Shown here piece after piece: positions 5,485-48,976 of a stretch of 64,000 nt of DNA. This DNA comes from an uncultured virus (IMG/VR IMGVR_UViG_3300044627_003678). Its lineage: Duplodnaviria > Heunggongvirae > Uroviricota > Caudoviricetes. The position numbers and the translations under genes were made by a program. The stretch lies in the IMG/VR virus record IMGVR_UViG_3300044627_003678; one strand, 5' to 3'. The first letter of the stretch is position 1. Each line of letters begins with the position of its first letter. Under the pieces are notes generated by a model. The model searched no databases. It was not told the origin of the DNA and worked only from the letters and a program-made list of their open reading frames with translations.

Positions 5485-6037
5485 CCTAGTTAAAACAAAA
5501 GCATATCGTGTACTAGGCATAGATGCCTCCACTACTTCAGTTGCGTTTTGTTTAATGGAAAATAATATTCCTTTAAAATGGGGGAAAATTGAATTATCTG
5601 GTGCAGACATATATGAAAAAATACATGATGCAAAGATTAAAGTAGCAGCAATGTTAGATAATTTAAAGTCAGATTATATCGTAGTAGAAGGAGCAATCCT
5701 TGTCAGATCACCTGATGCTGTGATAAAATTATCATATGTATATGGAGTTGTTATTGCTGAGCTTATGTCTACTGGCGCTAAGGTTATTACTATTAGCCCA
5801 TCCTCGTGGCAGGCGTTCATTGGCAACAAAAATCCAACGAAAGATGAAAAGTCTGCAATAAGATTAAAAAATCCTGGTTATGCAGATTCTTGGTATAAAA
5901 ATCAATTACGCAATATGCGTAAACAAAGAACTGTAGATTATTTTAATAATAAATATAAATTATCATTAACAGATTTTGACGTAGCAGATGCATTTGGCAT
6001 CGCACATTATTCAAATGAGGTGTTAACTAAACGATGA
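5471..6037 (+). CDS. ruvC: RuvC-like resolvase/endonuclease
   Basis: VLGIDAS, IVVEG, DVADAFGIA catalytic motifs. Confidence 0.85.
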   Translation: MNLASLVKTKAYRVLGIDASTTSVAFCLMENNIPLKWGKIELSGADIYEKIHDAKIKVAAMLDNLKSDYIVVEGAILVRSPDAVIKLSYVYGVVIAELMSTGAKVITISPSSWQAFIGNKNPTKDEKSAIRLKNPGYADSWYKNQLRNMRKQRTVDYFNNKYKLSLTDFDVADAFGIAHYSNEVLTKR

Positions 6038-16563: not shown

Positions 16564-16637
16564 GCAACAGTAGCTTAGTTGGTTAAAGCCCCGAACTCAT
16601 AATTCGGTAATCGTAGGTTCAAGTCCTACCTGTTGCA
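16564..16637 (+). tRNA. tRNA with CAT anticodon (elongator Met or Ile2)
   Basis: GCAACAG/CTGTTGC acceptor, CCGAA-CTCATAA-TTCGG anticodon arm, GTTCAAG T-loop; TTGACC...TATATT promoter upstream. Confidence 0.92.
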
Positions 16638-38178: not shown

Positions 38179-38431
38179 GTTGTTTAGCCCTTTCGTTGAT
38201 AGCGAATGATAAATTATACGTCATAATGTATATTTCTGTCAATGCGTCTAGTCGACCTGAAAGATATTTATATTCAGGCATATCCTGTAATTCAGATATG
38301 TCTAACAGTTTAGTTTCACATTCATACATTAGATTCTTCATATGTCCATGCATGATGTCTGTACCTGTCTCACCCATATCTACAAGCTTTTGAAGATGTG
38401 GTTCTAATTTATCAGACATTATCATTTGCAA
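38171..38431 (-). CDS. hypothetical protein
   Basis: ORF with GRLDAL motif. Confidence 0.6.
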   Translation of the reverse strand: MQMIMSDKLEPHLQKLVDMGETGTDIMHGHMKNLMYECETKLLDISELQDMPEYKYLSGRLDALTEIYIMTYNLSFAINERAKQRG

Positions 38432-38875
38432 ACCCTTTTCTTTACATACTGATATTTTGTATAAGCCTGGTCTGAGTAATTTTTTATTTGTCTAGATTTC
38501 CATGTGCAAACCTTAGCATTTGCTGGGACGGCAGTAATAGGTAATAACCCTAATACTAAACTACATATAATTATCTTACGATTCATTTGCTACCTCCAGT
38601 AGATGTTCTATAGCCATAATTTGTCCTTGGATATTGATCTTAGATTCAACATTTAAATTTTTATCCATATCCTGGTTAAGACTAATTAAATGAATATTCA
38701 TATATTCTATTAACTTATCCGTAGTAAGTGTTCTCATCTATGTACCCTTCTGCTAGCAGTCCCTCAAAGAAATCCCATATGGTTAATAGACCTTGCTTAA
38801 CATCAGGGTCGGAAGCGGAATCAATAGCAACAGTTAAACTATTACCAAAGTTCTGTATATCCTTATATGTATATC

Positions 38876-39115
38876 CTAACATTCTATGTAGTATTCCTCT
38901 CCAGGTTCTACCTGCCAGTATTCATTAAATTGTTTCTTGACGGATTCATCAGAACACATATTTGCCATTTCATAGTCAGCAATAAACATACCTTCATCTA
39001 TATGACCAGTTATCCAAGAATCAAATAACTGTTCTTGAATATCTTGTAATACAGCGTCTGATATATGCTTAGGCATATCATCAAACATACTAGGTTTATC
39101 ATTTTGATATCCCAT
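38876..39115 (-). CDS. acidic hypothetical protein
   Basis: CGAAAGGA RBS, PafBC-type promoter upstream. Confidence 0.7.
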   Translation of the reverse strand: MGYQNDKPSMFDDMPKHISDAVLQDIQEQLFDSWITGHIDEGMFIADYEMANMCSDESVKKQFNEYWQVEPGEEYYIEC

Positions 39116-39269
39116 ATATTCCTTTCGCTAGGACCTTAATTATATAACAGACCACTGACATTGTATATAGAATATAGGTGTGTTTCACACCACATGTCCA
39201 AGCTTTGAGATTTCAGGGAAATATATTTGACTTCCGTAAACAACATATGCTACCCTCACCCGTGAGCGC

Positions 39270-39404
39270 AAAAGAGAAGCCCCCGTGTATGGGATCACGG
39301 GGACTAAGATAAATGGCTGCTAGGACCTCAACGAAAGGAAAAACCTGCCTTACTTAGCATCTAGAGGAGATGCACCATTTATATAAATAGGCACAAGGCC
39401 TATT
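39270..39404 (-). ncRNA. candidate trans-acting antisense sRNA (~130 nt) complementary to the early-gene RBS
   Basis: TGA-TATAAT promoter at 39408-39416, multi-stem fold, terminator 39270-39304, loop UUUUUCCUUUCGUUGAGGU. Confidence 0.7.
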
Positions 39405-39418
39405 CAAATTATATCACA

Positions 39419-39823
39419 CTAAACGAGTAATCTTTCCAGCGCATACTTCTCACAGAACGCCGATAGGTCCATGGTAAAGATTGCTTCATTCTTCATACCA
39501 CGCACCTTATTGTCAAGGTTGCGGTGATCGTCCCAATCATGCAATGAGAATGTTTGTTGCTGCCAATTAATAACAGCAATCTTATGCTCGTTATCTCCAA
39601 TTGAATTTACTTGAAGACCCCAGCCTGTTTCCATATTCCATTGATCTCCAATTAATTGACTGATCGCAATCCGTGTAGCATATGATTCATCTGTCCAACG
39701 GGGACGGGCAGCAATGACAGCATCCGCCAATTTACCCAACATGTTATATCCAGCCCAGTGTCCGTATAGACATATGGTGTCGCCTGCTCCGTCTACGAAT
39801 ACGTAGTTTGCTCTATCTCCCAT
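39419..39823 (-). CDS. hypothetical phage protein
   Basis: MGDRAN...LYGHWAG...PRW.D.SYA.RI; AAGGCGG RBS. Confidence 0.75.
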   Translation of the reverse strand: MGDRANYVFVDGAGDTICLYGHWAGYNMLGKLADAVIAARPRWTDESYATRIAISQLIGDQWNMETGWGLQVNSIGDNEHKIAVINWQQQTFSLHDWDDHRNLDNKVRGMKNEAIFTMDLSAFCEKYALERLLV

Positions 39824-39824
39824 T

Positions 39825-40049
39825 TTAAACCGCCTTTTCTAGTTGAGGGACTTTTTCTGTTTTATTTAATTCTACTATTTCTAGTGTTACTTTGTCAAGA
39901 GCCTGTTTATTCTTGTTTAAATGGTGGCTACAGAAGCTGAGCTCATTTGATGTAAGCCCTCCCACTGTATCTACATCTGACTTATTAACAAATCTGATTA
40001 TCCATTTAGCCTGAGCTGGACAAGAATCGCATTTAATCCATTCGCTCAT
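39825..40049 (-). CDS. zinc-binding protein
   Basis: CDSC...FCSHH. Confidence 0.65.
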   Translation of the reverse strand: MSEWIKCDSCPAQAKWIIRFVNKSDVDTVGGLTSNELSFCSHHLNKNKQALDKVTLEIVELNKTEKVPQLEKAV

Positions 40050-40184
40050 AGTTTATTACTTTCGATCATGTCTGATAGTCTATCTAATAACCATGAATCA
40101 ATGTCAGCGATATCAATCTCCCGTAACTTCTCAATCATTTCTTCACGGGCAAACTTATAGCCTTCTTGGAATCCATCTTTATAA

Positions 40185-40424
40185 TCAGACATTTAACATC
40201 CTATCATATCTATATGCCAATTCGTTATCAGCATATTTACTTTCGACTAAAACCTTAAGTTGGTGCTTAGATATTAATCTAGTTACCTTCTCAATGTTAC
40301 CAGTTCCTATTTCGAAAGTCAATGTTTCTTTGTTATATGAATCAGGATCTAATCCTCCAACCTCAGCGTCCCATATAGAAAAATGGAACGCCCTGGATGA
40401 ATCTGCTTTTAATTTATAAAACAT
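40185..40424 (-). CDS. hypothetical protein
   Basis: coupled ORF (start MFYKL). Confidence 0.55.
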   Translation of the reverse strand: MFYKLKADSSRAFHFSIWDAEVGGLDPDSYNKETLTFEIGTGNIEKVTRLISKHQLKVLVESKYADNELAYRYDRMLNV

Positions 40425-40894
40425 TAGTCCCAATCCACATCTGTGTCTTGTAAAGACCAATCATTAATATCTACATTTGAATTATAAGATGTTAATGAAA
40501 GATCATCTGCTAACAGATAATGTGCGTCAAAGTCTTCAACCTCGTCAAGAGGAATATCGACTATGGCTTCAAACTGAATTGTACCAGTTACCCTAACTTG
40601 CTTGGTTGGATTAATTCCAAAGTATTCGCAGAGTTCACGAATAACTTCTTCTTTACTATAGTTAGGATTTGTCCATTCAACTACCTTGTCATTAAGACCG
40701 TCAACCAAACTTCTTAGTTTGATATACTCAGACTTTGCATTACGTGCTTGGTCCAGGGCCCATTCAATGTCTACAACTTTCTCGGTTGAGTAAGTAGTTT
40801 CATCATTGAAAATCTTCTTGTATGTAACAAGTTGATTAGGGTTATAGCGCTCTGCCTCTGATAAAGGTAGATTAGTTTCTGTCATTCCATTCAT
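40424..40894 (-). CDS. hypothetical protein
   Basis: likely start at 40894 after the ACGAAAGGA RBS; the frame is open upstream to 41074. Confidence 0.65.
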   Translation of the reverse strand: MNGMTETNLPLSEAERYNPNQLVTYKKIFNDETTYSTEKVVDIEWALDQARNAKSEYIKLRSLVDGLNDKVVEWTNPNYSKEEVIRELCEYFGINPTKQVRVTGTIQFEAIVDIPLDEVEDFDAHYLLADDLSLTSYNSNVDINDWSLQDTDVDWD

Positions 40895-41070
40895 TTCATT
40901 TCCTTTCGTTGTTGTTGGGAGTATTGTAGCACCTTCCACTGACAATAGTACATATGGGCTATTATTAAGTGGGGTGAGAAGTAGCTTCTCCTCAGTTCCC
41001 TCTAAATGAGTAACCTCAATTAAACAGTCAGTATCTGTATTTAAATAACTATACTTATTCCATTTATTAT

Positions 41071-41805
41071 TCATACTTTAACCTTATGAACACTGCATTC
41101 TGCCATGGCCTGTTCATCTTGCCAAGACCCTTGATTACATTCTGAACAGAACTCTCCGCATCCCTCTTCGCAGTATTCTATTGTGTCATAAGATTGGCAG
41201 GCATAGCACATATTGGTATATTCTAGGTTTTCTTTAACTTCACCACGAACAATCTCATATTCCCCACCCCAACCTGTCTCTTCCTCAAACTCTAATGTGA
41301 GAAGAGAATTAGGAACAAGATTACTTAGTTTAGTTAAGATAGTTACAGCAGGTGACCAAGCAGTGTTATATTTATATACTAGCCAGTTATCATCACCATT
41401 TGATTCATGTTCAAGTAATTCAGTATCAGGATACTCGTCACCGTCTGATACGGCTACATCCCATTTAGTTCCCCAGTTAGTTGTATTCCATGAATACCAA
41501 TCTTTCTGAGTCATAGCATGCGCTACCTCTTTAGCAAACCAATCAGGTGCACTCGTGTCTGTTCCTAGTCGTGTAGGCTGTTGAACATATTCTTGCATTG
41601 TAATACCGTCTTGTAGTGGAGAATGTATATTCCAAAATGCAAAGACAGGATTAGAGTAAGTTGATTCTGTTATTTCCATTTTCATAGTTTCAGAATTCCA
41701 ACTATCATGCCATACCATAAATGGCTCGTTAAGTTTATCTTTGATAAAATCTACCTCAGACTTTGGTCCTTGGATTGTTAATGTGTTATACACCCAGTTA
41801 GGCAT
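41071..41805 (-). CDS. DUF1281/YubB ferredoxin-like domain protein
   Basis: MPNWVYNTL, DWYSWNTTNWGTKWD, YNTAWSP. Confidence 0.8.
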   Translation of the reverse strand: MPNWVYNTLTIQGPKSEVDFIKDKLNEPFMVWHDSWNSETMKMEITESTYSNPVFAFWNIHSPLQDGITMQEYVQQPTRLGTDTSAPDWFAKEVAHAMTQKDWYSWNTTNWGTKWDVAVSDGDEYPDTELLEHESNGDDNWLVYKYNTAWSPAVTILTKLSNLVPNSLLTLEFEEETGWGGEYEIVRGEVKENLEYTNMCYACQSYDTIEYCEEGCGEFCSECNQGSWQDEQAMAECSVHKVKV

Positions 41806-41924
41806 ATTATTCCTTTCGTTGAATGTGGTAATTGTAGCAGAGTCAACTGACATTATCAAGGATTTCAGGGCTTTTTATATACATGCCGTAAGAAAGAAAA
41901 ATGGCCTTTACGTCTGGGGGCTTG

Positions 41925-41998
41925 CGATCCATAACGGACTTGAACCGTCGACCTCTACCGTGACAGGGTAGCGCTCTAACCAACTGAGCTAATGGACC
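41925..41998 (-). tRNA. tRNA-Asp(GTC)
   Basis: GGTCCAT/ATGGATC acceptor, CTACC-CTGTCAC-GGTAG anticodon arm, GTTCAAG. Confidence 0.95.
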
Positions 41999-42004
41999 TA
42001 GATG

Positions 42005-42024
42005 TGGGGCCCTTTCGGGCCCCA
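42005..42024 (-). other. GC-rich GNRA hairpin between the DUF932 gene and tRNA-Asp
   Basis: TGGGGCCC-GAAA-GGGCCCCA, no U tract. Confidence 0.7.
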
Positions 42025-42029
42025 GTTGA

Positions 42030-43037
42030 TTAGGCTAACGCCTTGACCGCTTTGAGAATTTTATTCTTCTCTGCGGTAATGATTGGGTCAAATCCACTTG
42101 CACCAGCATTTAGCGATTCGGTGTTACCAGTACGGGCGGTACGGTAATAATCTAAACGCTCAGTCAATGCATTAAACGCACCCCAAGCAGTGCCTTTAAT
42201 TGTGTTATTAGTTGGTGAGTTATGATAAAGGTCATCAATTAAAACAACCTTATTCTCCCACTTCTTTAATGCGCCTTTAACATCTGCTTCAGGCTTTGGG
42301 TATAGATTGCGAATCAAATCCGAGAATTGCTTATCGGTAATTGATTGCTTGAATAATTCGTCCGCTTCCTTTTGGAATGCATCTGCGTATGCAAATGTTA
42401 ATCCCAATGCTTGACGGGCTTGCACAATCCTACCTTCGGCAGTTTGTGTATGACGAATCTTGAATGATTGCTTAGCGCCCTTCATTGCAAGATTAAGAGT
42501 GTTTTGGCATACAACACGAACGGGTGTAATTGCTGCTTGAACCGCAACTGAACCATCGTGAGATGTCCATACAATTAAATATAACTTAGTTTTATCGTTA
42601 ATACCTTGTGGGTCTAATACGATCTCTCTAGGTATATCTAATGAGCCAAATACAACTTTGCCCTTTTTAATTGAGCCAGCAGATTCCCATTTAGCAGAAT
42701 CGTTATCTAATACATTATCAGCAAATGCGAATAACTCTTCATTCTGAACAGTTTTGTATCGCTTGCCAACTACTGATAAAACATCAGTGCCTTGGTCAAA
42801 TGGATTATCACGAATGACAAAGAAATTGTCTGATGTATTTCTCCATGTGTTTGGGATATGATCTGCAACATCTGACAAGCGGACATTCCAGTTATTCAAC
42901 TTTGCTTCTTCAAGCATTGTTGCGGTAGTTACATTTTCATCTTGAGCGAAAATGCGATTTGCAAGATTATGCCAAGCAGGTGCACCACGCAATGCAAATG
43001 CTACTTGACCATCTTGCTCTTCGAGATTATGAGCCAT
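42030..43037 (-). CDS. DUF932 family phage/plasmid protein
   Basis: MAHNLE, PAWH.L, Y..VQN.E.F, SHDGS, TPVRVVCQNTL, IRHT, GTAWGAFNALTE..D. Confidence 0.9.
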   Translation of the reverse strand: MAHNLEEQDGQVAFALRGAPAWHNLANRIFAQDENVTTATMLEEAKLNNWNVRLSDVADHIPNTWRNTSDNFFVIRDNPFDQGTDVLSVVGKRYKTVQNEELFAFADNVLDNDSAKWESAGSIKKGKVVFGSLDIPREIVLDPQGINDKTKLYLIVWTSHDGSVAVQAAITPVRVVCQNTLNLAMKGAKQSFKIRHTQTAEGRIVQARQALGLTFAYADAFQKEADELFKQSITDKQFSDLIRNLYPKPEADVKGALKKWENKVVLIDDLYHNSPTNNTIKGTAWGAFNALTERLDYYRTARTGNTESLNAGASGFDPIITAEKNKILKAVKALA

Positions 43038-43209
43038 TTTATCCTTTCGTTTGGTTGAATGCTTATTCTAACATACACGACTGACATTGTCTATCTTATT
43101 TGACATGAATTTGCGGGGGTTTTCCACAGGGTGCCGTAAGGCTGTGGATAAGTCCCCAGCTATTGAGGGCAGGGGAAATGGGCCAGGGGACTAGGCTGGC
43201 CCAAGTTTA

Positions 43210-43422
43210 TTAGATTAAGTTATGAATCTCTTCTGGAAAGAATGCTGCGAATACTTTTTTGTTTTCTTGTGTATCAACAACATATGCTTTAACATTGCCT
43301 TGAAATTTTTTTAAATTACGTTTAACTAACTTAGTTAATGCATCACGATTATAACTATTTGCAGACCATAACGTTAGATCATGAGCTTTATTAGCATCAT
43401 AGATTTCTACACGATACCGCAT
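43210..43422 (-). CDS. hypothetical protein
   Basis: ACAAAGGA RBS. Confidence 0.65.
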   Translation of the reverse strand: MRYRVEIYDANKAHDLTLWSANSYNRDALTKLVKRNLKKFQGNVKAYVVDTQENKKVFAAFFPEEIHNLI

Positions 43423-43460
43423 TGTGTTCCTTTGTTAGTAGGGATAGAAATTTTAACATA

Positions 43461-43485
43461 GGGGGCTAGATTTTGTCTAGCCCCC
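43461..43485 (-). terminator. hairpin / likely terminator
   Basis: GGGGGCTAGA-TTTTG-TCTAGCCCCC after the 43492 gene. Confidence 0.65.
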
Positions 43486-43491
43486 AGTTTA

Positions 43492-43914
43492 TTACAAGTA
43501 TCTTGCGATAGCGTTGTAGGTGCTTGTGCTTACTGTATCCTCATCGGTCATTTTGAGAATACGGATAGCGTTTTCCATTTCCTCTTTCATCTCATTGTAA
43601 GAGTGGCGGTGGATTTCCTCGTAGTTCTTTTCAGGTTCAGCAGGGAAGTCTTTGCTATCGCAAATTAAATCAAAATCTACATTTAGAGTTTTGTTCCAAG
43701 CACGATAGTTGGTGCGTAGGTTTTCTGCTTTAGCAATTTTGCTAACTGCCCATGCCCCAATTTCTTTTTGCCATTTTTCCTGAGCCTTACGATACTTTGC
43801 TTCGTTTTCGTCTTGCTTCTTAAAGTCAGCCTCTAATTTGGCTAACCTAGTTTCTAAGGCTTTAATAACCTTAGTTGTAGCGATTTTTACGCTGATGGGT
43901 TTGCTTCTTGCCAT
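43492..43914 (-). CDS. coiled-coil hypothetical protein
   Basis: ACGAAAGG RBS. Confidence 0.75.
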   Translation of the reverse strand: MARSKPISVKIATTKVIKALETRLAKLEADFKKQDENEAKYRKAQEKWQKEIGAWAVSKIAKAENLRTNYRAWNKTLNVDFDLICDSKDFPAEPEKNYEEIHRHSYNEMKEEMENAIRILKMTDEDTVSTSTYNAIARYL

Positions 43915-43946
43915 TTGTATTGCCTTTCGTTAGGTGGGTTGGTTTG

Positions 43947-44087
43947 TTATGCTTTAACGCTTGTCCAGCGGTCTGTTCCATTTACATCAAGCAGAATACG
44001 ATTAACTCCGCTTGGGTGGTTATCTATTGCTTTGATAACTCCAGTAATGCCACTTTGGGTGGTTGTGTAGGTTGTTCCGATTTCCAT
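43947..44087 (-). CDS. 46-aa SH3-like small protein (not in ORF track)
   Basis: MEIGTTYTTTQSGITGVIKAI...RILLDVNGTDRWTSVKA; has its own promoter and RBS. Confidence 0.7.
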   Translation of the reverse strand: MEIGTTYTTTQSGITGVIKAIDNHPSGVNRILLDVNGTDRWTSVKA

Positions 44088-44133
44088 TTGTTTCCTTTCG
44101 TTGAGGTTGTATTATAGCACCAGCCACCGACAA

Positions 44134-44403
44134 TTAGTAGTCGGTTTCAGGTAGCCACGCTTGTAGGTGATGAGCCTCTATAATCGCATAGGCAGGGGCT
44201 TCAGGTTTGCCTTTCCAATATACGCCTTCAGGCAGTTTGATTAACTGATTAAGTTCATCAGCATAATAAGCATCAATAGCATCAATACATGGTGCTACCA
44301 TAGATGATGGAACGGGTGGATAATGATTACTTTGTAAGTGGATTAGTATTGCTTGGTCTAAGTCAAAACTCTCCGCTAAGTCCGTTGCTGTGTTATATCC
44401 CAT
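44134..44403 (-). CDS. hypothetical phage protein
   Basis: HLQSNHYPPVP...IIEAHHL.AW; promoter and RBS upstream. Confidence 0.75.
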   Translation of the reverse strand: MGYNTATDLAESFDLDQAILIHLQSNHYPPVPSSMVAPCIDAIDAYYADELNQLIKLPEGVYWKGKPEAPAYAIIEAHHLQAWLPETDY

Positions 44404-44669
44404 TTGTTTCCTTTCGTTAGATTGGAATTATAGCAGACTTAACTGACATTTTTTAAGACACGCCCATATTTTTCAGGGTGATTTATACCACACCCTTAAC
44501 GACACGCCCGACCCCGCAGCTATGTGGGCGCCTTTTATCCGCTAAGCCCGTCTTGATCTGTATCAGGTTTAGAATATAGCAAAACAAAAAGAAAAATAAT
44601 AAATGGAGCAATTATTGCAATTGATAAAATTGCTCCAATTATTTCACCTAACAAAGAATCCATGGGCCC

Positions 44670-45419
44670 TTATTTCTTAGTAGCAGAAAATCTTATATCT
44701 GCTTTACCATAAACACATAAGCCGCATGACACGCATGCGCTGCCGCTAGTAGAAATTAGCGGAATGCTTTTATTATTTTCAGGGCATTTAGCGCCAGGTT
44801 TACCAATTAATTCTTTCATAGTACTTTCTGTAACGCCGAAAGTTTTACCTAAGTATGCTAATCTAATTTTATTACCAGTCTTACGTAGATCATGAGCAAT
44901 ATCTTTATTCTCATCATCCGTTGAATAATAAAGAGATAAGTTTTCAATACCGTCTAGGATGAGCGCTGCAGACTTAACTCGTGTATACACCCAAAATTGA
45001 ATATCGGTATTAGTTAAAATAACGTATTGCCATGCACGTGCATAAGTATCATTAAAGAAATCGCCATCCCAGTGGATACGGAATAATAACTTAGCATTTT
45101 TCTTTTCACAATCTTTTCTAAAATCATTAATCATATTTTCTAATAAATCCACCATAGTAGGCTCGTCGGCGTCCTTAAGTAAATTCCAATTGTGAATGAG
45201 CACGTCTCTAACGCCCTTATATACTTTTTCTAACTTACCCGCATAACATACGCTTTCGCATATGCTAGTGGCGCCAGGGCATGAGAATGCTTTTCCCGCA
45301 GGCAGGCCGAAAGTATTAGCAATGGCAGAAGTCTTGCCATTTTTAGATACAAGGTTAGTAACCTTGCGATCATTAGATCTTTTTAACATGGGAGCAATTA
45401 TAGCAGCGGGAACCGACAT
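44670..45419 (-). CDS. Gp88-like Cys-rich (radical-SAM-related) protein
   Basis: FGLPAG...CPGAT..C...CYA, FRIHWDGDF, FWVYTR, C..C..C. Confidence 0.75.
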   Translation of the reverse strand: MSVPAAIIAPMLKRSNDRKVTNLVSKNGKTSAIANTFGLPAGKAFSCPGATSICESVCYAGKLEKVYKGVRDVLIHNWNLLKDADEPTMVDLLENMINDFRKDCEKKNAKLLFRIHWDGDFFNDTYARAWQYVILTNTDIQFWVYTRVKSAALILDGIENLSLYYSTDDENKDIAHDLRKTGNKIRLAYLGKTFGVTESTMKELIGKPGAKCPENNKSIPLISTSGSACVSCGLCVYGKADIRFSATKK

Positions 45420-45805
45420 TACAAATCCCCCATTTCTGCATCGGCCATTCTTGACATAGCCCAATCTTGAGCTAAATCCCGATCATAGACAACGCTACAA
45501 TCTAAATCAAAATCAAATTCGTCCATTAGTTTACCTTTCGTTGGGTGAATTGATATTATACCTAACACGGCTGACATTTATTTGAAAACACCCAGTTTTT
45601 CAGGGTGTTTTTAGTCACACTCTTAACGACACGCCCGACCCCGCAGCCCTGGGGGCGCCGACACGCCCGACTGCGTTGTAAGCTGCGACACGCCCGAGAT
45701 TATATTAAATCAGATTTTTTATATTTAATTTTGCGTGTGTATTTTTTTTTATTGCGAATAGGTTGCGCCGCATTACTACGGCGCAACTCTTGTATTCGTT
45801 TTACT

Positions 45806-45997
45806 TTATCTAGAATTAAATTGGGGAACATGATAACCGCTTGCTTCATAAAATTTGTTTGCGTCAAATTTAGGATTATCTTTAGCAAACATTAAAGCAA
45901 AATCCACAATTACTTTAGAAAATAAAGCAGGGTGAGTTTTATCTGAAATATATTTCATAATTTCAGCAGTAGCAATATAATCTTTTCTAGTCATCAT
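45806..45997 (-). CDS. hypothetical phage protein
   Basis: MTRKDY..TA...FAKDNPKFD...F. Confidence 0.7.
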   Translation of the reverse strand: MMTRKDYIATAEIMKYISDKTHPALFSKVIVDFALMFAKDNPKFDANKFYEASGYHVPQFNSR

Positions 45998-45998
45998 A

Positions 45999-46198
45999 TT
46001 ATTTGCCCCCAATAAATCCAGCACGATTAAAGTTTTTAGTATACATTTTACCATTAGGTAAAGATAAATTATATGTTGCTAATTCATCAGCAAAGCCGAC
46101 ATCATAACATTTCGCAAACGCTTCAAACGCTTGTAATGCGTCAGCAAATTGGTATGTGTATTCTAATTTGCCGTCATAGTAAGTATCTAGTCTATACA
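45999..46198 (-). CDS. hypothetical protein
   Basis: coupled ORF. Confidence 0.6.
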
Positions 46199-46524
46199 TT
46201 AGATACCCCACACATCTTTAACACAATCGCAACTTTCCACATCATAGTTTTTTTCATCGCCCCAAAATATGAAGCCAGCACCGCCACACTCATCGCAAGC
46301 GACCCCGATTATTTCTGCTAGATTTCCCATTTATAGTTTTCCTTTCGTTGTTGTTAATGTAATTATAGCCTAAGCCACCGACAAAGTGGGAAGGACACGC
46401 CCTAAAGCGCACCCTCATTAAATAACCCGATTTCTAAATCTAGTAATTCATCAGGGGTGGCTTCGGATAAATCTACCCAGCCAGCACCCTCATCATCTAA
46501 GCGAAATATTTCTATGTATCCCAT

Positions 46525-46716
46525 TTACTCACCTACCTTAACCGCTATATTTCGGTAAGTATATTTACCAGTATCAGATTTAACCTGAACCAAATATCCT
46601 TCAGCATTTTCATAAAAAATATCTGATTTATCTGCTGAGATAATTTCTCCACGCAGAGTTTTTGAGTTATAGATTTTACCAATTAGTAAATCTTGTATTG
46701 TGTATAAGTTAGCCAT
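46525..46716 (-). CDS. hypothetical protein
   Basis: promoter plus ACGAAAGGA RBS. Confidence 0.7.
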   Translation of the reverse strand: MANLYTIQDLLIGKIYNSKTLRGEIISADKSDIFYENAEGYLVQVKSDTGKYTYRNIAVKVGE

Positions 46717-46988
46717 TGTTAGCCACTTCCTTTCGTTTTGTTATATGCCGATATTATACTCTAACCCACCGACAATTTGCATATTACTTGTGAGTAATCC
46801 CATATTTTGAGACGCTCAACTCATGTGTTCTTAATCACATTTAGCCTGTGGACGACACGCCCGACACGCCACGACACGCCCGAAAGTTATCCACAGATTT
46901 CAGGGCTTTTTTTTAATGTGTCTTAAATCACATTTTGCCCCCACAGCTTTTGTGGGCGCTTCCGCCTTTTGTCAAGGCGACACGCCGT

Positions 46989-47186
46989 TTAGTCTATGTG
47001 ACCTTCCTCACGCATATATTCCTCATGCTCAATTAAACCAATAGAGAACGCAATCGGATCGCAACACTCTAAGATTTCGCTGGCGGTAAATGTTGATACT
47101 CCGATTTTATAAGTAGGATAAATCTCATCTAACATTTGGCAGAAGCTTTCCTTTAATTCTAAATCCTTTTCGAATTGTGATTTCAT
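46989..47186 (-). CDS. hypothetical protein
   Basis: AGGAG SD. Confidence 0.65.
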   Translation of the reverse strand: MKSQFEKDLELKESFCQMLDEIYPTYKIGVSTFTASEILECCDPIAFSIGLIEHEEYMREEGHID

Positions 47187-47950
47187 TTATCTCTCCTAAG
47201 TAATACGATAGAATAAACAAAAGCAATAGAGCCAACTAGTAGCCATGTTGGAATATCTATACCGACACCATTAGGCCATAGCCCGTTAATATATAGCGAA
47301 AAGTATTCGCTATCTATAAATAATTCTAAGTTCATTATTCGTATTCCTCCCAATCTAGTGTTAAGCCTTTTTCGATTACCTCGTCCATGCTAATCATGTC
47401 CTCATCAAATAGACTTTCCTCGTTATGTTTGTCTAACTTTTCGGCCTCATCTAAGTAGGCATAAGCGTCTGCTATGTCCGCTTGAATAGTGTCCCATTTA
47501 GTCATCATTAGTTATTCACCTGCTCTATCTTATGTATTAGGTATTCGAATTTTAGCGGAGGGTTTGCCTCGTTTAATTCATTAACTAGAGCGATAATTTC
47601 TTTAATGCTCTTAGCGGTTAGTGTGCCTTTTTGTAAAGAGCCTTGCCAAATTGAGTAGGTTAGTTTCATTAGTTATTACCTCCACTAACAATAGCACCGA
47701 CAATAGCAATTAGAGTTATCGTGCCTAACACGATAGGCAAAACAATATGAGGATAATCCTCTACCCAATCAAAAAATAACATTAGTTAGCCTCGCTCTCA
47801 TCTATGTCGAACATTTCAGCAAACACTCTGTTTGCTTGTTGTAAGGCCTCTAGTGCCTCGTTTAGTTTATCCATTTTCTGTCCTTCTTTCGTTAGGTTGT
47901 TCATTAAGGTAAGACTATCATTACTGACCGACAATATCAACACGACACGC

Positions 47951-48133
47951 TTAGAGCGTGGCGTGAGATACCTCACACTCCTCAGAGCAGCGTGGCGTTT
48001 CCGCCATGATTAAGGTCATCAGACCCACACGCTCAGACTTAGTAAGTCTAAGACGGCTAACGGTATCGGACTTGATACCGCCATGATTATATTCGAACAA
48101 AAGTTCGGTATAAATATCATTTAGTTTATTCAT
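47951..48133 (-). CDS. hypothetical protein, first gene of the minus-strand island
   Basis: GAAAGGA RBS. Confidence 0.55.
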   Translation of the reverse strand: MNKLNDIYTELLFEYNHGGIKSDTVSRLRLTKSERVGLMTLIMAETPRCSEECEVSHATL

Positions 48134-48165
48134 TTTAAGTTATCCTTTCTAAGATACTTTCGTGG

Positions 48166-48221
48166 AGAGCGGTTATTTGCTAGGCTCACCCTTTCGGGAT
48201 TATTTGCTAGGCTCACGCTCT
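48166..48221 (-). ncRNA. two-fold symmetric leader RNA
   Basis: AGAGCG-[TGAGCCTAGCAAATAA]-TCCC-GAAA-GGG-[TGAGCCTAGCAAATAA]-CCGCTCT. Confidence 0.6.
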
Positions 48222-48712
48222 AATTCTTTATTTAATTTGTATAATATAATCCTAACAGGGGGGACTGACATTTTGCCTATCACAAATCGGACATGTCGGA
48301 CATTTCAAAATAAATCTTAGAATAATCGTGTGAGATAAACCACATATGGTCGCTCTATCTGGACAAATCGGACATTTTAAAACCCTGGATCATACAAATA
48401 AAATCTATATTAACATTTTGGTAGATATGAATATTATAGTCGACTAGGATTATATATGATATAAAAAGGCGGGGGATGTAGATGTATCATCTATTGCGTA
48501 TATATCCCAGATATAGATATACATTATGGATCTCTTCAGCTACTACGGTATATCTTCAGCAATTTATGTTATATTCCAGTATATAGCATTATATGGGGTA
48601 TATGGGTTGTATTGATTAGTATGGGTATATAGGGTCTTTCATTTCCGCCGACGCACTTTTTTTCCGCAATTCACTTTTAATTTCCTTGTGAATTTAGTAT
48701 ACTGAATACCAT

Positions 48713-48785
48713 TGGTCCATAGCTCAGCTGGCAGAGCGCAGAGCTGTTAACTCTGATGTCCCAGGTTCGAGCCTTGGTGGACCAG
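48713..48785 (+). tRNA. tRNA-Asn(GTT)
   Basis: TGGTCCA/TGGACCA acceptor, CAGAG-CTGTTAA-CTCTG anticodon arm, GTTCGAG. Confidence 0.95.
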
Positions 48786-48904: not shown

Positions 48905-48976
48905 GGCTTCATCGTCTATCGGATAGGACATCGCCCTTTCACGGCGGAAAGACGGGTTCGATTCCCGTTGGAGCTA
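48905..48976 (+). tRNA. tRNA-Glu(TTC)
   Basis: GGCTTCA/TGGAGCT acceptor, TCGCC-CTTTCAC-GGCGG anticodon arm, GTTCGAT. Confidence 0.93.

Follow-up and report, generated by a model that had tools for sequence, protein, structure and literature searches.

The stretch of phage DNA analyzed here, 64,000 nucleotides (nt) of the uncultured Caudoviricetes record IMGVR_UViG_3300044627_003678 (herein the window), carries a small RNA gene whose predicted apical loop mirrors a word repeated in the leaders of early genes of the same phage. On balance, and with some reserve, we favor the reading that this RNA is a trans-acting anti-leader repressor of early translation that acts on a gene set as a class. 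The source is a lake phage of actinobacteria, and the window (34% G+C) appears from its sequence to be part of the genome of a large lytic-type actinophage; it encodes a DNA polymerase, a UvsX-like recombinase, a ribonucleotide reductase, a terminase, WhiB, an endolysin, and a tail fiber. From ~36 to 48 kilobases (kb) the minus strand carries genes whose products are small or without known function, including DUF932, GP88, and DUF7455. The small RNA element lies on the minus strand of this block (39416-39268), in the gap (39116-39418) between a gene of 134 amino acids (aa) and one of 79 aa.

The core of the loop that closes helix P3 of the RNA, CUUUCGUU, is the exact mirror of the leader word AACGAAAG (herein the tag). 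The window holds 13 copies of the tag, where 1.46 would be expected. On the minus strand there are 11 (38190-47893), each of them 6 to 13 nt ahead of a start codon that opens a reading frame, and the two plus-strand copies are the RNA element itself and a site at 5836 within a plus-strand gene. The longer word ACGAAAGGA is found eight times (0.28 expected; 0 of 100 shuffles attain this count), seven times on the minus strand and once on the plus strand, within the RNA element. As both words are far above expectation, a chance origin of the match is excluded. Contiguous Watson-Crick runs between the loop and the 11 leaders measure 17, 14, 13, 13, 12, 11, 11, 10, 10, 9, and 8 nt, and complementarity to the seed is enriched at translation starts, as in trans-encoded base-pairing small RNAs. 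Genes elsewhere in the window have AGGAG- or AAGGA-type sites or no leader; the tag is avoided outside the leftward 38-48 kb block.

A preliminary description, made from the sequence of the window, had reported a full match at one leader and ~9 to 14 nt at others, which these runs reproduce. It had also taken the element for the only copy of the motif in opposite orientation, which holds for ACGAAAGGA and fails for the shorter AACGAAAG, and had seen no plus-strand start codon after it. There is indeed no ATG, GTG, or TTG; a CTG does follow 5 nt on and opens a 13-codon frame (read by eye), its letters being the complement of the P3 stem. A small plus-strand protein starting at ATG 39313 (14 codons) was rejected, as its ATG hangs on a variable P1 base pair and is missing in most relatives.

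The element consists of a promoter, a 5′ hairpin, a three-way junction, and a terminator (Table 1). Promoter, 5′ hairpin, closing stem, and GC-rich terminator with its U tract all lie where they had first been placed, and the promoter is, as claimed, not of the PafBC type; the hairpin once drawn with a UCCUCUA loop exists and folds one pair tighter, with the loop CCUCU. Transcription would start near 39401, as placed from the −10 element. The fold of the single sequence is modestly below shuffles in energy (z = −2.47; 4 of 200 shuffles are equally stable). Evidence for an RNA must accordingly come from its relatives.

Table 1. Coordinates of the small RNA element, of the tagged leaders in the window, and of the hairpins in relatives that lack the RNA
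Feature	Coordinates	Strand	Basis or description
Extended −10 promoter TGATATAAT	39416-39408	minus	Sequence reading; no PafBC-type −26 box, no GTC[AG]G upstream
5′ hairpin UAGGC-CUUGU-GCCUA	39402-39388	minus	Predicted fold; at predicted 5′ end
Three-way-junction core	39382-39309	minus	Covariance-model match 39305-39386, 79.3 bits, E 1.5e-15
Closing stem P1, AUAAAUGG with CCAUUUAU	39382-39375 with 39316-39309	minus	Predicted fold
Hairpin P2, GCAUCU-CCUCU-AGAUGC	39373-39357	minus	Predicted fold
J2/3 strand UAAGUAAG	39356-39349	minus	Predicted fold
Helix P3, GCAGG with CCUAGC, one bulged A	39348-39344 with 39324-39319	minus	Predicted fold; closes apical loop
P3 apical loop UUUUUCCUUUCGUUGAGGU	39343-39325	minus	Core CUUUCGUU at 39337-39330
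Intrinsic terminator: 10-pair stem (7 G-C pairs), 8-nt loop, U-rich tail UCUCUUUUGC	stem-loop 39305-39278, region to 39268	minus	Predicted fold
Tagged leader	44091-44107	minus	17/17 nt complementary to loop; start codon 44087; PafBC-type promoter ~44131-44132
Tagged leader	46337-46350	minus	14 nt complementary
Tagged leader	41810-41822	minus	13 nt complementary
Tagged leader	40899-40911	minus	13 nt complementary
Tagged leader	44407-44418	minus	12 nt complementary
Tagged leader	46727-46737	minus	11 nt complementary
Tagged leader behind canonical TTGACA-18-TATAAT promoter	38189-38199	minus	11 nt complementary
Tagged leader	45534-45543	minus	10 nt complementary
Tagged leader of DUF932 gene	43042-43051	minus	10 nt complementary
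Tagged ribosome-binding site within operon, no close promoter	43923-43931	minus	9 nt complementary
Tagged leader, 8-nt core only	47886-47893	minus	8 nt complementary
Leader AGCGAAAGG of the gene just downstream of the RNA	39119-39129	minus	12 nt complementary, including one G.U
L297/L298 hairpin	L297:13751-13784		Stem 13 base pairs; loop CCCUUUCU
L299 hairpin	L299:9800-9835		Stem 12 base pairs; loop UUACCUUUCUUU
L301 hairpin	L301:12238-12273		Stem 9 base pairs; loop CUCUAACUCCUUUCUUUA

IMG/VR contains 67 relatives of the upstream 134-aa gene (42 to 98% identity). A three-way-junction scaffold with CTTTCGTT follows this gene on the same strand in 64 of 66 loci (L091-L156); of the remaining two, L153 is cut off and L152 (same contig as L063) carries at this locus a plain hairpin (GGGGAGG with CCUCCCC) whose loop, UUUCCUUUCGUUCUC, has the same motif as the P3 loop. 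Four segments (GGUG, UAA-UA, CUUUCGUU, and GCAGCC) are invariant in 49 distinct aligned sequences, and the covariance model built from this alignment gives 67 strong matches in 72 sources of a first set. A second set was gathered with a pattern independent of the neighboring gene, which retrieved at least 119 further IMG/VR stretches; 74 of the 80 loci fetched match the model, and the invariance of the core there is by construction, the pattern having demanded AACGAAAG. In a third set, reached through relatives of the DUF932 gene, the model matches 59 of 79 loci. In every set there is one match per locus, always on the strand of the early genes. Complete or near-complete RNA-bearing genomes hold exactly one strong copy (5 of 5). 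Conservation in relatives, which the preliminary description had proposed as a check, is thus borne out.

Positions predicted to pair do so in 92.0% of cells of the first set, compared with 73.0 ± 0.9% in shuffles (0 of 500 reach the observed values), and 15 of 22 pairs have changed on both sides (slid-partner controls, 29 to 48%); these counts come from a model-fitted alignment, which leans to the structure of the model. The second set gives 90.1% against 72.5% in shuffles, with changes on both sides in 14 of 22 pairs. Frequent G.U pairs fit the minus strand only, and promoter and terminator agree with this strand. On such comparative grounds the RNA gene and its fold seem close to certain.

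The flanks of the core are conserved in kind. Relatives have hairpins with other stems (AGGCC, AGGUCC, CUGGC, AGGGCC) at the 5′ position of the alignment, and a hairpin followed by a T-run after the core (median energy −14.7 kcal/mol). In 65 of 89 distinct contexts a TGnTAnnnT element stands 12 to 50 nt 5′ of the core; the remaining 24 have no recognizable promoter of their own, with the core directly after an upstream stop codon, and these copies would be produced as the 3′ untranslated region (UTR) of the upstream gene. The element of the window, with its own promoter and intrinsic terminator outside coding sequence, has the build of a trans-encoded base-pairing small RNA. As regards a riboswitch or attenuator, the next gene has its own PafBC-type promoter at least 110 nt past the terminator, and terminator sequences vary freely among relatives.

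Searched at the gathering threshold, Rfam gives only four tRNAs in the window and no match for the small RNA; on 39100-39480 with E up to 10 there are 0 matches, including to C4 (RF01695) and 6C (RF01066). Neither the region nor two variants of the RNA has a blastn match among 50,697 deposited phage records. The nearest record, G001, stops before reaching the RNA. A pattern search of 185,579 species genomes returned three contigs of ~3 kb (L277, L278, and L279), all of which match the model; they come from metagenome bins of unrelated taxa (Bacteroidia, Polynucleobacter, and "bacterium") and are probably mis-binned stray phage contigs. No publication on this RNA was found in the main text of open-access papers. 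The RNA family is large, conserved, and not in Rfam.

The leaders that bear the tag belong to a distinct promoter class. The motif of the DNA-damage activator PafBC is given for mycobacteria as tGTCgg(N10)tA(N3)T in PMC8635444. There are 12 PafBC-type matches on the minus strand (39159-48269), for example TGTCGGTG-N8-TATAAT at 46383 and 44132, and TGTCRGTGG occurs five times in the window against 0.31 expected; the phage seems to borrow host PafBC for its early genes. The tag follows the −10 element by 7 to 17 nt in 10 of the 12 matches, and one of the other two looks leaderless. Unlike these promoters, that of the small RNA has no GTC box. The RNA had been proposed to control the whole PafBC-driven regulon; specificity for PafBC-type leaders stands, "whole" does not, given the 10 of 12 here and ~60% tagged in relatives. 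A second conserved leader type, ACAGAAAAGGCGGAAG, stands untagged in relatives behind a promoter subclass of the form GTCAGacccacatggTATTAT.

Conservation of the leaders has the same limits as that of the loop. From 66 relatives, 638 unique PafBC-type promoter segments were gathered without regard to the tag, and 500 of them contain GAAAG. Aligned on this word, the leaders have A at −3 in 467, A at −2 in 425, C at −1 in 414, and G at +1 in 447, with −4 mixed; leader conservation thus covers AAC-GAAAG-G and ends where loop invariance ends, its footprint being that of (C)CUUUCGUU. AAC precedes GAAAGG at 266 of 377 sites behind a PafBC-type promoter, compared with 39 of 100 other sites. The 3′ end of actinobacterial 16S rRNA is CCUCCUUUCU. 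A perfect partner for this end would carry A instead of C before GAAAGG, and the AA further upstream is beyond its reach; the AAC of the leaders is therefore not explained by ribosome binding.

Relatives that lack the RNA use the tag differently. Of 80 DUF932-gene relatives fetched, 79 were searched, and most of the 20 without the RNA end too soon after the gene. Six loci have room for it and lack it (L297, L298, L299, L301, L302, and L354); five of these contigs are fragments, and the L299 contig, 104 kb long with terminal repeats, is a complete genome and gives no model match at E up to 1. Unique PafBC-type promoter segments are tagged in 345 of 577 cases (60%) in the 59 loci with the RNA and in 9 of 64 (14%) in the six without, with a median tagged fraction per locus of 0.63 and 0.14, respectively. 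Where the RNA is present, 387 of 465 leaders have C just before GAAAG; where it is absent, A stands there in 25 of 43 and C in 13 of 43. Presence of the RNA and use of the tag thus co-occur across related phages.

Three of the RNA-less lineages have, on the early strand, hairpins with long stems (9 to 13 base pairs [bp]) and CCUUUCU-type loops that mirror their own AAGAAAGG leaders (Table 1). A scan for such hairpins in the 59 RNA-bearing loci (994 kb) yielded a single loosely similar loop, CUCUUUCUUUU. Taken together, the lineages replace the G of the loop and the C of the leader by U and A, respectively, which amounts to an intermolecular covariation. Covariation of loop and ribosome-binding site, suggested in the preliminary description as a further check, is accordingly seen between lineages and not within the family. 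That leader conservation and loop invariance share their limits, and that RNA-less relatives differ in tag use and carry plain hairpins, are the new observations of this work.

The same data bear on where the targets lie. Host mRNAs with GAAAGG-type sites could be the main targets, for host shut-off, with tagged phage early genes affected either incidentally or, at the switch to late genes, deliberately. In actinobacteria the standard ribosome-binding site is of the GAAAGGAGG type, which occurs for instance in primer strings of Corynebacterium papers, and avoidance of the tag by genes outside the leftward block would suit such a role. Without AAC, however, pairing to a generic site falls to 5 to 6 nt, and presence of the RNA follows the phage's own tag usage; we regard host targeting as improbable.

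Several observations weigh against an anti-leader repressor. Sequestration of the loop had been named at the outset as a possible objection, and here the evidence is divided: the core has a mean unpaired probability of 0.68, compared with 0.42 for the rest of the RNA (49 sequences), and exceeds 0.5 in 45 of the 49, as in a conserved accessible seed, whereas in the minimum-energy fold of the window RNA some of the core is paired, CCUU lying against GAGG. Duplex energy was rejected as a predictor of targets; with a 23-nt probe run on both strands only the leader at 44100 is clearly above random sites, and most leaders (−20 to −23 kcal/mol) do not surpass the best random sites of the window. The signal is carried by seed enrichment, not by duplex energy. 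Core and tag are both fixed within the family, which leaves little covariation and no classical compensatory evidence; coadaptation of the flanks is weak, own leaders being the best partner for four of six loop classes with differences of at most ~1 kcal/mol. On the DUF932 tree the RNA need have appeared or disappeared only twice, so that its association with the tag rests on two to three independent contrasts. As for the plain hairpins, CCUUUCU is also the ribosome's own tail, and the L299-type hairpin occurs in 2 of 35 loci that share the same upstream gene, with identical loops.

The tag also occurs without the RNA. DSL-LC01 (OQ999401.1) is an isolated lake Actinomycetia phage of 58% G+C with a version of the 134-aa gene 45% identical to that of the window. 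It contains ACGAAAGG 22 times in one orientation and never in reverse, and it has no model match. Of these copies, 21 lie in one 20-kb block (24-43 kb region), with the leader consensus ccaACGACGAAAGGACAAac. A 9-bp hairpin of this phage near 39823, with the loop CACUUUCGCUAUCUU, was rejected as a counterpart of the RNA, since just 6 nt fit its leaders, and is kept as a lead only. The one complete genome without the RNA, G003, has five early-block tags compared with 8 to 13 in four RNA-bearing genomes, and an 18-mer of the window is an ordinary leader in two unrelated high-GC contigs. By these comparisons the tag seems older and wider than the RNA, and the RNA more likely evolved as a reader of a leader class already present than the other way round.

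The junction poses the remaining difficulty. GGUG, UAARUAA, and GCAGCC are invariant, antisense action does not account for them, and an invariant junction is superfluous for simple antisense action. As extra seeds these segments were rejected, their complements not being enriched in the window (23 versus 21 expected; 9 versus 6.3). In the junction G-[C/U]-UAA-[G/A]-UAA (39357-39353) the two variable bases are C and G in 54 of 90 distinct sequences, U and A in 29, C and C in 3, and U and C in 2; C with A and U with G do not occur (alignments A2 and A3). This co-change suggests a pair or tertiary contact across just three bases. Pairing of the junction UAAGUAA with a loop UUACUUA, seen in some minimum-energy folds, was discarded, as sequences with UAAAUAA retain UUACU.

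Such invariance, the defined tertiary fold to which the strict C-G to U-A change points, and the tag of DSL-LC01 all favor a main job other than antisense: the junction would bind a protein or ligand, or the RNA would be a decoy of the 16S rRNA 3′ tail, with the fit to the leaders a by-product. Yet the loop conserves, after CUUUCG, the UU that pairs with leader AAC and lies beyond the 16S tail, loop and leader conservation share their boundaries, and plain hairpins without a junction bear the same kind of loop; we hold this alternative to be possible but unlikely. Both sets of observations could be joined in a bolder scheme, which we offer as speculation and consider rather unlikely. RNA and AAC-GAAAGG tag would form a phage-private copy of the Shine-Dalgarno/anti-Shine-Dalgarno pair, made specific by one base (loop G/leader C, versus U/A in RNA-less relatives and the ribosome) and addressing only PafBC-driven early messages; a protein or metabolite, sensed by or docked at the junction, would determine when the loop is accessible, and the whole would be a trans-acting, signal-dependent switch for a promoter class.

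For the anti-leader repressor that we favor, we propose the following mechanism. A discrete RNA of ~130 nt would be transcribed from 39401 to ~39270 (minus strand) by its own activator-independent extended −10 promoter; in relatives without such a promoter, and possibly here too, it may also be made by read-through from the upstream gene. The 5′ hairpin and terminator would flank the three-way junction, whose P3 arm would present CUUUCGUU in an open loop. In vivo this loop would pair in trans with AACGAAAGG, which overlaps the Shine-Dalgarno sequence of the first gene behind most PafBC-type early promoters, in a duplex of 8 to 17 bp that would hide the GAAAGG needed by the 16S rRNA 3′ end. Since the duplex covers GAAAGG and is longer than the 16S contact, pairing would block 30S loading and might leave the short leader open to RNase attack. 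A single RNA would reduce or stop translation across the whole promoter-proximal class of early genes. As its promoter needs no activator, the RNA could put a threshold on early expression or, as it accumulates, end it. A role in immunity is less likely than control of timing or dosage, because the window appears to come from a lytic-type phage and no integrase or repressor is among the 59 window proteins scanned.

The sign of the effect might be the opposite. If pairing shielded the 5′ end from a 5′-exonuclease or guided a processing cut, the RNA would stabilize or mature early mRNAs; the tag lies 7 to 17 nt after the −10 element, very near the predicted mRNA 5′ end, and the complementarity is the same as for repression. 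The duplex covers the GAAAGG core (in loop classes with C before the core), however, so translation should drop while the RNA is paired, and no structured leader was found that pairing would open, the leaders being short and rich in A and C. We give a helper of this kind little credence. Anatomy, distinct promoter, conservation, structural covariation, accessible loop, and specificity for PafBC-type leaders all hold; the observation made in the preliminary description is confirmed and its interpretation partly supported.

Lake metatranscriptomes offer a first view of expression. In three of four runs contigs cover 39320-39857, joined to the upstream gene and ending inside the RNA; their ends, at 39320-39326, may be an assembly break where strains diverge. 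The fourth run (X1) has no contig over the RNA, and 39270-39319 is without a contig in all four. Contigs from RNA libraries show neither strand, ends, nor discreteness, with DNA carry-over possible, which weighs against the favored reading. Their continuity with the upstream gene, like the 24 contexts without a recognizable promoter, would fit an element with no separate RNA function. Such an element would be just the structured 3′ UTR and terminator belonging to the upstream gene; or else the inverted motif would be bound as DNA by a protein that recognizes the leaders, likewise as DNA. Three helices covary, with G.U pairs among them, however, and this shows that an RNA fold is under selection; the TGnTAnnnT promoter is present in 65 of 89 contexts, the distance of the tag is fixed to the start codon and not to the promoter, and the upstream gene varies among relatives. 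All this makes the absence of an RNA function highly improbable.

The RNA can be set beside several known regulators. Two short phage RNAs, P22 sar and lambda OOP, lower expression of a phage mRNA by pairing near its start; they are transcribed opposite a single, fully complementary target, whereas the RNA here is encoded apart and shares a word of 8 to 17 nt. The C- or U-rich loops of 6C/B11 (actinobacterial) and RsaE (staphylococcal) mimic the anti-Shine-Dalgarno sequence and pair with many mRNAs at ribosome-binding sites. The present loop differs in reading three more upstream bases (AAC), which restricts it to the tagged class; the RNA is phage-encoded, cellular genomes being without it except for the three ~3 kb metagenome-bin contigs, and it matches neither the 6C model nor those of other Rfam families. 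T4 RegA represses translation of many early mRNAs by occupying ribosome-binding regions; it is a protein, whereas the effector proposed here is an RNA that reads a shared leader word. The c4 RNA is freed from a longer transcript by RNase P.

In P1 and P7, c4 acts in trans, its loops pairing around the ribosome-binding site and blocking translation, according to PMC12197685. The present RNA shares with c4 its phage origin and a loop complementary to ribosome-binding sites of putative targets, and it would likewise act in trans. The scaffold here, unlike c4, is a three-way junction; the likeness to P1 c4 drawn in the preliminary description thus extends to the mechanism and not to the family, given the lack of an Rfam match. 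In its temperate phage c4 serves immunity through a single operon (ant), whereas the RNA here faces at least 11 separately promoted leaders in a window with no lysogeny genes seen. Cluster A mycobacteriophages produce abundant early noncoding RNAs, to which PMC5712189 assigns no function or target. These too are small and actinophage-encoded; the blastn search, whose records should include those phages, gave no match (no direct sequence comparison was made). By analogy, the present RNA would work like c4 and the bacterial small RNAs with anti-Shine-Dalgarno loops; it belongs to neither group.

The surroundings of the element have conserved features of their own. A block of ~70 nt follows the terminator (39195-39265; L091-L156) and reads GCCCGCA..GAGGGTA.CATAT..TTACG..GTCAAATA..CC.GAAAT, its TTACG invariant in 38 of 38 sequences. 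A second structured RNA at this place was rejected (RNAalifold, 0 pairs in 38 sequences). On the plus strand the block resembles a promoter (TTGACT, 18 nt, TACCCT; 39229-39258) that would transcribe antisense to the small RNA. The perfect inverted repeat GGTGTGAAACACACC (39177-39191), kept in relatives ~15 nt upstream of the next PafBC-type promoter, is a likely operator. Four tRNA genes lie at 16564-16637, 41925-41998, 48713-48785, and 48905-48976, and one of these falls in the early leftward block, flanked by the DUF932 gene and the next promoter. Several genes (1184, 7962, 21066, and 24405; 45417 on the minus strand) have a TATAAT-like element a few bases before their start, e.g., TGGTATAATCTT-ATG; they probably give leaderless mRNAs, as are common in actinobacteria.

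If the proposed function is correct, one small phage RNA would control at least 10 separately promoted early genes post-transcriptionally through a shared leader word, a regulon-scale control compared with the single-operon action of classic antisense RNAs. Specificity by a single base makes the design of compensatory mutations clean and testable. The family, with at least 119 IMG/VR stretches and no entry in Rfam, is worth cataloguing whatever its function. For the phages of freshwater actinobacteria, which are abundant, for the most part uncultured, and apparently users of host PafBC DNA-damage promoters as well, the repressor reading, if true, would provide the first functional access to the timing of gene expression.

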